A DNA stretch of 64,000 nucleotides, from assembly GCA_963668025.2 (NCBI GenBank), contig CAXXTH010000008.1, positions 98,383-162,382 on the forward strand, read 5' to 3'. Each line of letters starts with the position of its first letter. Within the stretch, counting starts at the first letter, position 1. The notes beneath the pieces are model-generated. The model worked only from the letters and a program-made list of their open reading frames with translations. It made no database searches and was not told the DNA's origin. The position numbers and the translations under genes are program-made. Shown in pieces: positions 58,738 to 63,994 of the stretch. This DNA comes from Candidatus Hydrogenedentota bacterium (GTDB lineage Bacteria; Hydrogenedentota; Hydrogenedentia; Hydrogenedentales; SLHB01).

Positions 58738-60051
58738 ATGTCGCGGGCGCTGGCGCTAGTCCGCCGGGACCGCGGCGTGGACTTTGAAGCAACGGAGAAA
58801 CTCATCCGCACCGCCGCCCTGGAAGGCGCGGGAAAGACGCTGGCCGTCCTGTTCGACAAGGCAAACGCCATTGTCCAGGGCCAGGAGCATGCGTGCCCGC
58901 TGTGCGGCCATCCCATGCGCCGCGCGGGCATGCGGGCCAGGCGCATCACGACCATTCTGGGGAACGTCACGCAGGAGCGCGCGATGTACCGCTGCCCATG
59001 CGGGGCCACCGCCTATCCAGCGGACGAACTGCTGGATGTCGCGGGCACTTCGCGTTCGCCCGGCGTCAGGCGAATGACGGCGCGCCTTGGCGCGCGGGAA
59101 AGCTTCGCGGACGCCGCCGGGGATCTAAAAGAACTGGCGGGCATCAGCGTGAGCGCCAAGGACTGCGAGCGGTCCAGCGAGCAGACGGGAGCGGACGTGG
59201 CCGCGTGGGAAAAGCAGCGGCGCGGGCATCCGTCAAACCCCGCGCAGCCCAGCACCGGCGATGAGATTCCCGTCCTGTACATCGAAATGGACGGCACGGG
59301 GGTTCCCGTCGTCAAGTCCGAAACGGACGGGCGCAAGGGAAAGGCGCAAGACGGATCCGCCAAAACCCGTGAGGCCAAAATCGGATGCGTCTTCACACAA
59401 ACCAGCACGGACGAGAAGGGGGAGCCGGTGCGCGACCCCGGCAGCACCACCTTTTCCGGCGCCGTGGAAAACGCCGAAGCCTTTGCAGGCCGCATCTTCG
59501 CCGAAGCCCAGCGCCGTGGACTGGAACGCGCGCAAAAGGTGGTGGTCCTTTCCGACGGCGCGCAATGGATAGCGAACATCGCCGCCGACTACTTCCCCGG
59601 GGCCGTTCACATCCTCGACCTGTATCACGCACTGGAACACCTGGCGCTGTTGTGCGCGCTGCTCTTTGGGAAGACCACTGAGCTGGGGATGCGGATGCGC
59701 CAAAGCCTCAGCGAACTCGTGCGGCAGGGAGAGGCCGCGCAGGCCCTGGAGCTACTGCGGCCACACATGCCCAGCCACGACGATGACGGCAAGGCGGCCT
59801 GGGAACATTTTCTGTATCTGGGCAGCCGCGCCCACATGATGCGCTATGCCGAATTCCGGGAACAAAAACTGTTCGTCGGCTCCGGCGTCATAGAGGCCGG
59901 CTGCAAAAATGTTGTAGGAAAACGGCTCAAGCAGTCCGGAATGAGATGGACGGTCAACGGTGCAAACAAGATCATTACGCTACGATGCGCCTTCTTGAAC
60001 AGAGACTTCGAAGACTTCTGGGCCGACAGAGCTAGGAAAGATGCCGCATGA
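58738..60051 (+). CDS. ISKra4-family DDE transposase, copy 2
   Basis: Identical translation to 50075-51388. Confidence 0.92.
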
Positions 60052-60084
60052 AAGCACAATTGGGACGCACACCCATTCATTTTT

Positions 60085-60190
60085 CACCACAACGGCACGA
60101 AGACACAAGGAACCGGAAGCAATTCCTTGTGCCTTGGTGTCTTTGTGTTGCAAAAATCACAACACCTTTCTGCTGCTGCCATCGCGCATT
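60085..60190. repeat. Long palindrome P1 (60085-60150) plus remnant of a GxxExxY 3' end
   Basis: CACAACGGCACGAAGACACAAGGAA-CCGGAAGCAA-TTCCTTGTGCCTTGGTGTCTTTGTG. The minus strand of 60157-60189 encodes MRDGSSRKVL*, versus MRDGISRKVL* in the full copies. Confidence 0.85.
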
Positions 60191-60310
60191 ACCCGAGGGA
60201 GCGTCGTTTTCGCTTTTTTCGGATAAACAGGTTTGCCGGGTTGGTTTGTGGGACCAGCGCCCTCGCCGGTCATTCATCACCACTTGGCCAAAATGTTACG
60301 AACAGTGTCC

Positions 60311-60712
60311 TCACGCCTCGCCCACGGCTTCCAGGATGATGGCGCGTAACTCTTTTGGTTCTATAGGCTTATTGACGAACGCCTGCGGCGGGGCCGTCCG
60401 AAATTGCTCCGCCAGCGACTCCGCCGTCTCCGGGGAGCCCAGTTCATAATCATTCACTGAACTCAACATGATGATAGGCGTATGCGCCAAACGCGCATCG
60501 CGCCGCATCGCCGCAAACACTTCCCGCCCATCCATCCCCGGCATCATGATATCCAGCACCACCAAATCCGGCAGCATCCCCGCCGCCACATGCAGCGCCT
60601 CCTCCCCATTCTCCGCCTCAGCCGCCTCCCACCCCATACGCATCAACACTTCCACCACAACGGCCCGCACATCCGCCTCATCATCCACCACCAATGCTTT
60701 ATTTGCTGGCAT
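60311..60712 (-). CDS. Single-domain response regulator (receiver)
   Basis: LVVDDE, DLVVLDIMMPGMDG, IIMLS and NKP motifs. Confidence 0.92.
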   Translation of the reverse strand: MPANKALVVDDEADVRAVVVEVLMRMGWEAAEAENGEEALHVAAGMLPDLVVLDIMMPGMDGREVFAAMRRDARLAHTPIIMLSSVNDYELGSPETAESLAEQFRTAPPQAFVNKPIEPKELRAIILEAVGEA

Positions 60713-60753
60713 GTTTACCTTTCTGAAAACAAAAAACACTCGAACCAATATTT

Positions 60754-60823
60754 ACCACAAAGACACCAAGACACAAGGAACACGGAAGAAGCAATTCCTT
60801 GTGTCTTGGTGTCTTCTTGTGGT
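60754..60823. repeat. Long palindrome P2 at the 3' end of GxxExxY copy 1
   Basis: ACCACAAAGACACCAAGACACAAGGAA-loop-TTCCTTGTGTCTTGGTGTCTTCTTGTGGT. Confidence 0.88.
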
Positions 60824-60830
60824 GAAAAAA

Positions 60831-61228
60831 TCACAACACCTTTTCTGCTGATGCCATCGCGCATCAAGGGTACATTGAAAATTGACCAGCAATCCGAGCC
60901 GTTTTCCCGCCAGTTTCAGGTAGGTCAATAACTGCGCCTCATGGATGGGAAGGGTCTTTTCCATTGCCTTGAGTTCCACCACCACCCGGTCATCCACCAG
61001 CAAATCCAGCCGCAGTCCCGCATCTAACTTGACGCCATCGTAGATGATAGGCGTTGTTACTTGCGATTGATAGTGAATGCCTTGCTTCGTAAGCTCGTGG
61101 CATAAGCACGCTTCATATACGCATTCCAGCAGCCCTGGCCCCAATGCCCGATGCACCTGGATGGCGGCATTCACCACGGCGTTCGCCGCTTTCTCCGTAC
61201 GCTCGGGAATTGGCTCAAATTGCTGCAT
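60831..61228 (-). CDS. GxxExxY protein (PD-(D/E)XK-like nuclease), copy 1; two apparent extra bases near the 3' end
   Basis: VHRALGPGLLECVYEACL, LRLDLLVDDRVVVELKA, HEAQLLTYLK and GLLVNF motifs; corrected end NVPLMRDGISRKVL*. GGGAGG RBS. Confidence 0.9.
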
Positions 61229-61250
61229 TCACCCTCCCCTTTTCTTTTTT

Positions 61251-61300
61251 CAACACAAAGGCACAAAGACACAAGGAATTGTTTTCGGTTCCTTATGTCT
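61251..61300. repeat. Palindrome P3 (right arm truncated) at the 5' end of GxxExxY copy 1
   Basis: CAACACAAAGGCACAAAGACACAAGGAA-TTGTTTTCGG-TTCCTTATGTCT. Confidence 0.85.
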
Positions 61301-61393
61301 GTATTATGATAGTGAATTTGAAACGATTGTGATATTTTGCTCCTTTACATTGGGCCAGTTGGGACGCAATTACTCAGATGAGGAGACGTAGGA

Positions 61394-61641
61394 ATGAAAG
61401 TGACTTTTGTTGTTGGAATTATTGCCTTCGTAAAGGCAATACGGATAAGATCATGGGATGGGCACGCAAAGAATTGGACTTAAATTTCCCGCCTTTACAA
61501 GGCATGGATGTTGAGGATACTGCATGGCAGCAATCACGGAAAATAACTGGCATATCGTTTGATCTATGCAATAAATCTATGCGAATTAGTCTTGGGGATG
61601 AAATAACTGTAGATAAAGACCCACTTGGAAAGCACAGTTAA
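61394..61641 (+). pseudogene. Short AT-rich hypothetical gene or fragment, probably frameshifted
   Basis: AGGAG RBS and ATG 61394 (MKVTFVVGII); the continuation KGNTDKIMGWARKELDLNFPP... is in another frame. Confidence 0.35.
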
Positions 61642-61682
61642 GGCGTACAAGCTTAGCGAATGGCAAGTGGATGTAGATGATA

Positions 61683-61787
61683 TCTGAAAACCCTTCAGAG
61701 TGCATGCCTTTGGTGAACTCGATGCAGGCGCCGCGCGGCGTCGAGCATGTCCCAGAGGCGGGCCATGTCTTTGATGTCAGGCGGCAT
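61683..61787 (-). pseudogene. Truncated HEPN/DUF86-like toxin N-terminus
   Basis: MPPDIKDMARLWDMLDAAR...IEFTKGM overlaps the MNT gene stop, then similarity is lost. Confidence 0.55.
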
Positions 61788-62086
61788 AGAGCACCTCGCG
61801 GGTGCGCAGGATCTCCTGGATGCGCCACGGGATTGCGCAACGCTTCTCGTTCCACGAGGTCGATGGGGCGCTCGTAACGCGCTTCGAGTTCCTCTTTCAT
61901 TGTTAGCAGGGCATCGAGGTCTAGAGAGGTTTCAGGCTCGAAACTCACGAGGAAAATCGAGGTCGCTATCTGGTTTGAAGTCGGACCGAAGGGCGGAGCC
62001 GAAAAGGGACAACTCTTTGATGCGCCATTTTACAGCAGAACTGGGCCAGCACATTCATTGGTCTGAGAACACATCTCCGCGCTCAT
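61777..62086 (-). pseudogene. Minimal nucleotidyltransferase (MNT) antitoxin with several frameshifts
   Basis: Assembled across frames: [36 protein letters not shown]...IDLVEREALRNP..EVLYAA*. GGAGG RBS. Confidence 0.75.
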
Positions 62087-62196
62087 TGTCAGGCCTCCTG
62101 TTCGGCTCCCGCTTTCTACGTGGTATACATTAAAAACATACGAAGACTTTTACATGGATACTTGAAGCGATTCAAGATAGGCGTACGATTCATTTT

Positions 62197-62263
62197 CAAC
62201 ACAAAGGCACGAAGACACAAGGAACATGGAAGCAATTCCTTGTGCCTTGGTGTCTTTGTGTTG
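62197..62263. repeat. Long palindrome P4 at the 3' end of GxxExxY copy 2
   Basis: CAACACAAAGGCACGAAGACACAAGGAA-CATGGAAGCAA-TTCCTTGTGCCTTGGTGTCTTTGTGTTG. Confidence 0.9.
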
Positions 62264-62268
62264 AAAAA

Positions 62269-62671
62269 TCACAACACTTTCCTGCTAATTCCGTCGCGCA
62301 TCAGGGCCACGTTGAAATTGACCAGCAATCCGAGCCGTTTTCCCCGCCAGTTCTCAGGTAGGTCAATAACTGCGCCTCATGGATGGGAAGGGTCTTTTCC
62401 ATTGCCTTGAGTTCCACCACCACCCGGTCCATCCACCAGCAAATCCAGCCGCAGTCCCGCAATCCAGCTTGACGCCATCATAGATGATAGGCATTGTCAC
62501 TTGGGATTGATAGGGAATGCCTTGCTTCGTAAGCTCGTGGCATAAAGCACGCTTCATATACACATTCCAGCAGCCCCGGCCCCAATGCCCGATGCACCTG
62601 GAATGGCGGCATTCACCACGGCGTTCGCCGCTTTCTCCGTACGCTCGGGGATTGGCTCAAAATTGCTGCAT
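62269..62671 (-). pseudogene. GxxExxY protein, copy 2 (about 7 extra bases; pseudogene or sequencing errors)
   Basis: Colinear with 60831-61228 from ATG CAG CAA to NFNVALMRDGISRKVL*. Confidence 0.85.
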
Positions 62672-62695
62672 TCACCCTCCCCCCTTTCCTTTTTC

Positions 62696-62759
62696 AACAC
62701 AAAGGCACAAAGACACAAGGAATTGTTTCCGGTTCCTTGTGTCTTCGTGCCTTTGTGTT
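62696..62759. repeat. Long palindrome P5 at the 5' end of GxxExxY copy 2
   Basis: 27-bp arms with one mismatch around the loop TTGTTTCCGG. Confidence 0.9.
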
Positions 62760-62883
62760 AAAAAATCCGGATCTTCATAGTTGCTCAATTCTCGCGCTCA
62801 TTGCCAGGCCTCCTTTGGATTTGCTATTATACTATACGAAGAATACAGGAAAAACCACACAGAAATCCATAAAAAGTGCTGAA

Positions 62884-62956
62884 CGTAGCATGGGCGTCTC
62901 GCCCATGAAGCAAGTGCTATAGCCCATTGAATCATGGGCGAGACGCCCATGCTACG
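62884..62956. repeat. GTAG-family REP doublet
   Basis: CGTAGCATGGGCGTCTCGCCCATG and its perfect inverse CATGGGCGAGACGCCCATGCTACG. Confidence 0.85.
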
Positions 62957-62962
62957 TTTTGT

Positions 62963-63994
<1,032 letters not shown>

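Follow-up and report, generated by a model that had tools for sequence, protein, structure and literature searches.

GxxExxY nuclease genes between inverted arms of tandem short repeats: a candidate mobile cassette in Candidatus Hydrogenedentota and other bacteria

When a small gene lies pressed between long palindromes, it is fair to ask what is inherited as a unit. In a window of 64,000 nucleotides from a Candidatus Hydrogenedentota bacterium (the whole stretch of DNA analyzed here; contig CAXXTH010000008.1, positions 98,383 to 162,382), two copies of a gene for a GxxExxY protein each stand between two such palindromes, and a first-pass annotation made from the letters had proposed that gene and palindromes form a minimal mobile element. 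Do the two belong together, and does the combination move? We find that gene and arms are one heritable unit that crosses phyla, with arm type tracking protein clade; that genomes differ in whether an orthologous site carries the cassette, which internal deletion of the gene reduces there to an arm-loop-arm' hairpin; and that gene-less hairpins are dispersed through the genome in the manner of miniature inverted-repeat transposable elements (MITEs) or of the hairpin doublets of repetitive extragenic palindromic (REP) sequences called REPINs. The association is apparently undescribed, and the locus studied here is one case of a general pattern. Whether all this adds up to a selfish, horizontally moving cassette bounded by terminal inverted repeats, with MITE- or REPIN-like derivatives and a nuclease that probably acts on its own arms, the reading we favor, is a matter on which, for the chain as a whole, our judgment is evenly balanced; the mobile, co-inherited unit of gene and arms is much better supported than the enzymology.

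What does the locus contain? Five palindromes (p1 to p5, recorded without strand), each about 75 nt long, have arms of 30-33 nt that are 82-100% complementary and loops of 10-14 nt. The arm can be written TTTTCAACAC-AAAGG-CACGAAGA-CACAAGGAA and holds three 8-nt units of the form CACnAAGr (CACAAAGG/CACGAAGA/CACAAGG), so the tandem build in threes that had been described stands, and the lengths once given for it (~27 bp of ~9-nt units) give way to those measured here. Gene copy 1 (60831-61228, minus strand), a PD-(D/E)XK gene with GPGLLECVY and D...ELK present, has p2 (60751-60828) on its 3' side and p3 (61246-61300), which lacks the outer half of one arm, on its 5' side. Copy 2 (62269-62661, minus strand) lies likewise between p4 (62193-62267; 32-nt arms, 91% complementary) at its 3' end and p5 (62690-62765; 33-nt arms, 94% complementary) at its 5' end. 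Beside p1 (60080-60155; 33-nt arms, 82% complementary) is a 45-bp minus-strand remnant of the 3' end of a third copy (60156-60200), which aligns with both units in the ...MRDG.SRKVL* region and its stop; such a remnant had been noted. The 10-nt loop CCGGAAGCAA of p1 recurs as length variants in p2 and p4, and its reverse complement TTGTTT(T/C)CGG occupies p3 and p5, so the 3' and 5' hairpins of each gene are mutually inverted, in agreement with the first-pass annotation. It was also right that the units contain no transposase: PF13366 is their sole Pfam match.

As assembled, neither gene copy reads through: the tail of copy 1 is shifted, giving a 158-aa open reading frame (ORF), and copy 2 is split into three ORFs. 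Aligned with each other, their coding parts show nine single-base insertions, of which copy 2 has seven and copy 1 has two. A public sequencing run, X1, covers 59% of the stretch and perhaps derives from the source sample, so that it serves as a check on the consensus rather than as an independent genome; among the rows listed, its contigs lack the extra bases at 60841 and 60878 in copy 1 and at 62461 in copy 2. Between 60000 and 63000 at least 12 single-base differences from the run contigs are listed, 9 of them beyond those three gene positions, and the loop of p2 is shorter in the contigs (letters absent at 60782-60786 and 60815). The window assembly therefore contains single-base insertion errors, and the apparent frameshifts are mostly or wholly of this kind. 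Once gap columns are dropped, both copies have 131 codons and a common stop, and they differ at 14 synonymous and 3 nonsynonymous codons, which points to purifying selection after duplication and bears out the earlier view that the copies are under selection.

Given these errors, the duplication itself might be suspected of being a product of repeat misassembly, along with the frameshifts, and the many single-base insertions in the window that are absent from the run contigs lend this some color. We find it scarcely credible, however. Sequence specific to unit 1 and to unit 2 is present in the X1 contigs at similar depth (33-65 and 38, with all 30 bins covered), so that, as far as the contigs show, the duplication claimed at the outset is real; the units are separated by 17 codon substitutions in the pattern of purifying selection; and the tandem layout occurs likewise in a relative, G051 (genomes and loci are named by G and L numbers where they must be told apart). 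Elsewhere in this genome, the same insertion errors mean that no frameshift should be called a pseudogene without a check against reads.

What, then, does the gene encode? The copy 1 protein matches PF13366 (PDDEXK_3) with an E value of 2.2e-39 (134.9 bits; cut-off, 22) and TIGR04256 with an E value of 2.5e-41 (140.7 bits; cut-off, 35). Across 28 homologues the G-x-x-E-x-x-Y motif, GLLECVY in copy 1, is invariant at G33, E36, and Y39; in the catalytic motif, RLDLLV...VVELK in copy 1, D76 and K88 are invariant and E86 is kept in at least 90% of the sequences, and a helix glutamate is invariant too. The AlphaFold model (pLDDT 94.7) shows a restriction-endonuclease-like alpha-beta-beta-beta-alpha-beta fold, and the fold matches listed are mostly PD-(D/E)XK proteins, among them the BpuSI nuclease domain (Z 7.6), Cas4 SSO0001 (Z 7.6), BglII (6.8), and Hjc (6.2); since all Z values are below 8, they support the PD-(D/E)XK fold and assign no subfamily or substrate. 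Foldseek gave no match to PDB at an E value of 0.001 or below, its weak rows being PD-(D/E)XK nucleases, and a sequence search of solved structures returned nothing relevant. The catalytic D...ExK motif is retained in the GxxExxY gene, which evolves under purifying selection. That the family has no established function, as the first reading had it, agrees with the available part of a PD-(D/E)XK survey, which lists the function of PF13366 as "Unknown" (PMC3424549). A full-text literature search on GxxExxY, PDDEXK_3, and the accessions, with supplementary files outside its reach, turned up nothing about function or about repeats beside the gene.

Could the gene and its palindromes have come together by chance? 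The genome (6.15 Mb in 24 contigs, 94% complete) has 266 palindromes with arms of at least 20 nt, or 0.043 per kb. Such a palindrome lies within 100 bp of 11 of the 13 PF13366 loci, on both sides in 6 of the 13, and the remaining two loci have imperfect arms, as judged by eye. With only 266 palindromes in 6.15 Mb, chance is excluded. The palindromes were sorted by modularity clustering (single linkage chained families together) and form arm families, one per lineage, that share a common build of three tandem 8-10-nt units: CACAAAGG in the window, and CGCAAAGG, CACAGAG, ACACGAAAT, ACAAGAT, CGCGAATGG, and TTCGCGCC. As a control, 15 loci with Y1-transposase (PF01797) genes of similar size were inspected, and a tandem-subrepeat palindrome lay within 200 bp of one of them, at 188 bp.

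A skeptic could still hold that generic intergenic repeats, REP-like stabilizers or terminators, have gathered with the gene in permissive junk regions. About 30 further sites of the window family do adjoin unrelated genes, and the locus, with its insertion sequence (IS), gene remnant, and broken frames, has the look of a junkyard. This explanation nevertheless seems to us very improbable. The enrichment at GxxExxY genes is far above the density of the repeats; the arms abut start and stop codons, and in Methylophilus the stop lies inside the arm; no U run follows the stem, which makes it no canonical terminator; and across phyla the flanks beat displaced controls and the arms track the protein tree, as described below. 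Enrichment, displaced controls, and tree have already largely refuted coincidence.

How far does the pattern extend? A scan of one genome per species yielded 46 loci in many phyla, with homologues of 34-69% identity, the best in a Hydrogenedentota metagenome-assembled genome (MAG). Most of these loci, examined by eye, have an arm just 5' of the start and the complementary arm just 3' of, or overlapping, the stop. Flanks were scored by the best local alignment of the 5' flank to the reverse complement of the 3' flank, with 176 windows displaced by 0.8-1.1 kb within the same loci as controls, and 32 of the 44 scorable loci exceeded the 95th percentile of the controls (medians, 16.75 versus 8.0; Mann-Whitney p=1e-14, a value that overstates the evidence because several loci are orthologues). 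A strict palindrome search succeeds at only about 10 of the 46 foreign loci because most have a single arm per side. The layout is arm-gene-arm' in Bacteroides, Methylophilus, Sulfuricella, G078, and G054 and hairpin-gene-hairpin in the window, L001, G051, G045, and Geomonas. The first-pass picture of two complete hairpins per gene is thus right for the window and is replaced by single inverted arms in many other genomes. Of the 16 best homologues among 60 relatives, 15 are flanked by arms, and G051 reads hairpin-gene-hairpin-gene-hairpin. Taken with the counts for this genome and for the foreign loci, this upholds the claim that the association is both specific and general.

The arms also leave a trace in annotation. 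Upstream of the start in L002, L003, L024, and L044 they translate in frame, producing false N-terminal extensions such as MNHQVTKTPRK and MNHEDTKS, and automatic GxxExxY gene calls can be expected to start frequently inside an arm.

If gene and arms are inherited together, arm type should follow the protein, and it does. A quick maximum-likelihood tree of 63 proteins splits with 99% support into clade I (51 rows) and clade II (12 rows). At least four matches to C[AG]CN[AG]AG occur in the flanks of 41 of the 51 clade I rows and of none of the 12 in clade II, where 8 of 12 have A[ACT]ANGAT instead. Arm labels placed on the tree require 11 changes, compared with a mean of 20.5 for shuffled labels, and 0 of 200 shuffles were as low. 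In the subclade that holds the window together with L001, G078, G054, G051, and a Zetaproteobacteria MAG, all six members have CACnAAG arms. Because arm labels follow the protein tree, gene and arms travel together, also between phyla, and the co-phylogeny of protein and repeat that the first-pass annotation had named as a check is present. Since common descent by itself might produce such a pattern, what is established is the unit and not a biochemical interaction.

Does the unit come and go? We searched 41 Methylophilus genomes for the 1.2-kb stretch around a cassette of that genus and read 20 sites. Five carry the full cassette, TAGCCACAGAGG-GCACAGAGC-TCACAGAGAAAA followed by the gene and the complementary arm; the stop codon falls within this 3' arm. 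At eight empty sites the two neighboring genes abut or overlap. Two have a gene-less hairpin of the same arms (G036 and G007), and five have a hairpin of a different family, with ACGCnGAT units. The 26-nt loop in G036 still has the bases with which the cassette interior begins and ends, and because both gene ends are retained we read it as an internal-deletion derivative. G007 has four tandem gene-less hairpins, each accompanied by ~90 bp from the 3' end of the gene upstream (L063, contig C1, 320650-321500), which suggests hairpin-associated local duplication. The Methylophilus arms recur at about nine other places in the cassette-bearing genome. The presence/absence polymorphism expected of a mobile element thus exists, in Methylophilus rather than in the window's own genus; empty sites were found, and no target-site duplication or clean excision footprint was recognizable between filled and empty Methylophilus sites. 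For the window locus itself, 30 relatives, all of other genera, were searched for an empty site, and none had synteny across 59900-63100.

Gene-less derivatives are common at home as well. The window arm pattern has 70 hits in its own genome and 99 in the relative G054, compared with 0-1 for the reversed pattern (0 in its own genome), and its distribution is patchy, with a match in 18 of 61 relatives. Hairpins with loops of 7-120 nt account for the ~30 window-family sites away from GxxExxY genes, and no target-site duplication was recognizable around these dispersed copies. A search of Rfam with the hairpins returned only sub-threshold look-alikes of microRNA precursors and no known RNA family. 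A terminator reading of the hairpin was tried and rejected, as a T run precedes and an A run follows the stem on both strands.

The same frames hold other genes. In the source genome (G000), a four-helix-bundle gene of the 23S_rRNA_IVP type (L087; contig C18, 379096-379430; PF05635, E=5.5e-24), split in the assembly, lies between inverted arms of tandem TAGGGTY heptamers. Contig C23 (L088; 323100-328130) has three tandem ~1.64-kb units whose 431-aa products are signal-peptide-like and have no Pfam match, with CACnAAG arms meeting in arm'-23 nt-arm junctions. Tandem-subrepeat arms also enclose a CAP12/Pycsar-effector-type TIR protein gene (PF10137, E=6e-37; L086; contig C17, 1301538-1302545) and two paralogues with weak nucleoside-deoxyribosyltransferase-like matches (L084 and L085; contig C10, 210840-212013 and 468503-469570), so that defense-like genes share these frames. 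The palindromes, enriched though they are at GxxExxY genes, are not private to them, since sulfatase, TIR, and four-helix-bundle genes are bracketed too. Repeats may also be nested: on contig C18 (220281-220641) an ACAAGAT hairpin sits within a GTAACACTTTAGCGGACTGAAG-type inverted-repeat element that is itself framed by a CACAAAGG arm pair, and this composite is found at nine loci with 85-99% identity. Recent mobility of the ACAAGAT hairpin, whose dispersed copies are nearly identical (99.4%), was considered and rejected, the flanks being conserved as well.

Is it the stem or its sequence that has been conserved? In 21 window-family hairpins, 87% of arm positions are complementary. At the free positions (4, 8, 12, 16, and 22), 14 changes were compensated, 50 affected one arm only, and 11 differed between the arms, so the conserved feature is the repeated motif CRC-N-RAG and not hairpin pairing. 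Random re-pairing of arms gave a complementarity of 411, compared with 422 observed, and 32 of 2,000 permutations reached the observed value. In 37 gene cassettes, whose stems would still pair at ~89%, sense-strand mismatches of the G-U type (38) are no commoner than those of the A-C type (39); together with the mostly uncompensated variable positions, this leaves no visible selection for pairing beyond conservation of the motif. Judged from these sequences, the repeated CRC-N-RAG in both arms fits protein-binding sites better than selection on an RNA stem.

These counts bear directly on the main alternative, which likens the cassette to the intervening sequences (IVSs) of 23S rRNA. It would be an insulated passenger whose ~30-bp RNA stem, formed in a read-through transcript, is cut by RNase III, freeing the cassette RNA and keeping the host operon functional; the GxxExxY gene would be cargo with a role of its own, in defense or addiction, and the arms would be moved by another enzyme or by recombination. 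In the available part of its description, the Coxiella IVS is a 428-nt selfish element with a 28-bp terminal inverted-repeat stem, excised by RNase III, in which three tandem GACAGAT heptamers precede the start codon of an S23p ORF of ~120 aa (PMC4990558). The IVSs of Coxiella and Leptospira accordingly share with our cassettes a small ORF within ~28-bp terminal inverted repeats that contain tandem short repeats, as far as that source goes, and arms of the same build enclose the PF05635 gene found here. Read-through expression would suit the co-orientation of the cassette with the upstream gene at 37 of 43 loci and with the downstream gene at 32 of 41 (crude ORF calls), and the Methylophilus cassette sits between genes that abut when the site is empty. 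The bracketing of TIR-domain, sulfatase, and other genes likewise counts in its favor. We nonetheless consider this alternative rather unlikely. Beyond the mismatch counts, it leaves unexplained why arm families diversify with GxxExxY clades and why the many arm families within one genome go with different paralogues, and a PADLOC search found no defense-system match besides a marginal Cas4 hit (E=0.008).

There are differences of setting as well. IVSs lie in helix 45 of 23S rRNA and their excision by RNase III is demonstrated, according to the part of the literature available, whereas GxxExxY cassettes stand between protein-coding genes, encode a PD-(D/E)XK nuclease, and are candidates for such RNA processing. 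The window cassettes are not insertions in helix 25 or 45 of 23S rRNA, the sites that define an IVS; all 46 fetched loci have ORFs, not rRNA, alongside; and when the genome's 3006-nt 23S rRNA was aligned to a model of 2925 positions, the part of the alignment examined showed small insertions only and no arm-type IVS. By likeness of build, the 23S IVS is nonetheless a closer known analogue than the pairing of REPs with REP-associated tyrosine transposases (RAYTs) alone. The selfish-cassette and IVS-like readings may both hold.

How does the cassette compare with other systems? With REP/REPIN-RAYT systems, as far as the available sources describe them, it shares a small gene accompanied by inverted palindromic-repeat copies that are dispersed as gene-less hairpin doublets, and several gene-repeat pairs per genome, each with its own sequence family. 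The analogy drawn by the first-pass annotation survives in that hairpins of the same arm family, lacking the gene, lie scattered through the genome, and yields in that the IVS is the nearer relative in form. RAYTs differ in being HUH Y1 (IS200/IS605-type) transposases, where the cassette has PF13366 and not PF01797; the cassette arms are made of three tandem subrepeats, and the Y1 genes of this genome are not flanked by such arms. In the sources available, RAYTs are mostly vertically inherited, while GxxExxY gene and arms cross phyla. With IS elements and MITEs the cassette has in common the ~30-bp terminal inverted repeats around a single gene, a derivative reduced to those repeats (G036), and copies that are dispersed and nested; it differs in lacking a DDE, serine, tyrosine, or HUH transposase, in a gene of only ~125 codons, and in that no target-site duplication was recognizable at the Methylophilus sites. 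Free-standing PD-(D/E)XK homing endonucleases are also small selfish nuclease genes, and the I-Bth0305I catalytic domain is among the weak fold matches, but the GxxExxY gene lies in no intron or intein and is bounded by repeats.

Integron cassettes deserve separate mention, as they too are promoter-less single ORFs, co-oriented with their neighbors and bounded by an imperfect palindrome. One could suppose exchangeable promoter-less genes with attC-like palindromes and a recombinase encoded elsewhere. Co-oriented single ORFs each followed by an imperfect palindrome, hairpin-gene-hairpin arrays, direct orientation of the hairpins in the CGCAAAGG family, and differing cargo genes between arms are all in keeping with that idea. 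The outer ends TTTCAAC...GTTGAAA, moreover, match 6/7 to what we take to be the attC core, RYYYAAC/GTTRRRY. We regard the idea as improbable all the same. The cassettes have palindromes on both sides, which in the window unit are inverted and not direct, and other families end differently (TAGCCAC, TCTCACGC), so the arm families share no core site. In many phyla the cassettes occur one at a time among housekeeping-type genes and not in arrays beside an integrase; we know of no integrase association for GxxExxY cassettes, and an integrase was not searched for.

We return to the selfish cassette and to how it might work. The locus would represent a small selfish element present in two copies, and in three at an earlier time: a promoter-less GxxExxY gene held tightly between inverted arms, each of three 8-9-nt units (CACnAAGr here; CRCNRAG in general). 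As a multimer, the GxxExxY protein would bind to the repeated units of the arm family that goes with it, and it would nick or cut at the arm boundary. Cassette and gene-less derivatives could then spread through host repair, recombination, or replication, a relationship parallel to that of REP and RAYT with a different enzyme. A second role, compatible with the first, is likely: the arms of a read-through transcript would pair and RNase III would excise the cassette, as in the 23S IVS, which would make insertion between genes harmless.

Several observations weigh against this proposal. To our knowledge, a single-domain nuclease of 120-130 aa cannot carry out strand transfer alone. The arm family of the window also brackets a sulfatase gene, the CAP12/Pycsar-type TIR gene, and the tandem 431-aa genes, and the same cassette build carries the four-helix-bundle (S23p) gene, which is no nuclease; because such unrelated genes are bracketed too, the arms could be the vehicle of some other factor. 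Five tandem-subrepeat hairpin families have no adjoining GxxExxY gene in this 94%-complete genome. The ACAAGAT copies lie inside a larger composite repeat and so are no proof of the hairpin's own movement, and the Methylophilus sites, as noted, show no recognizable target-site duplication or clean excision footprint. On the comparative side, the counted loci are not independent, with several Bacteroides, Methylophilus, and Geomonas orthologues among them, and the tree came from a quick rather than a careful search. Proteins 63-64% identical in G055 and G064 have CACnGAG arms; with arms shifted in this way within the clade, arm type is no strict function of protein similarity.

The surroundings of the window units are of interest in their own right. 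A response-regulator gene occupies 60311-60748 on the minus strand between p1 and p2. On the other side of p1 is an ISLre2/UPF0236-type IS whose transposase gene (437 aa) spans 58738-60081 and whose last ~180 bp have eight further genomic copies at 99-100% identity. Its end (~60075-60081) lies within ~5 bp of p1, and the IS may have landed next to, or within, a unit bounded by hairpins. The interval 61586-62133 shows ~70% DNA identity in eight relatives; its ORFs overlap, are broken, and match nothing in Pfam, and it probably represents two small conserved genes disrupted by the same insertion errors. At 62882-62958 is a nested palindrome of another kind (AACGTAGCATGGGCGTCTCGCCCATGA...), whose family has 47 copies in the genome, none of them adjoining a GxxExxY gene.

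What the finding means reaches beyond this organism. Members of the large GxxExxY family (PF13366/TIGR04256) occur in many phyla, and a genome often has several of them; inverted arms of tandem subrepeats as a defined DNA partner give the family a testable function. The cassettes account for a class of long intergenic palindromes that litters many genomes and gives rise to spurious short ORFs and false N-terminal extensions, and they tie in with the 23S rRNA IVSs, whose origin and spread lack an explanation. As a tentative and somewhat doubtful extension, GxxExxY proteins could be the dedicated nucleases of ancient, pan-bacterial mini mobile elements whose ends are inverted arrays of three protein-binding repeats, with gene-less hairpins and 23S IVSs as members or derivatives. 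If that is true, they would represent a transposon-like or homing system of a new kind, one that works by PD-(D/E)XK chemistry and cuts itself out of transcripts as well. And if the nuclease is arm specific, the many natural pairs of protein and arm would supply orthogonal, sequence-specific DNA-recognition modules ready for use.

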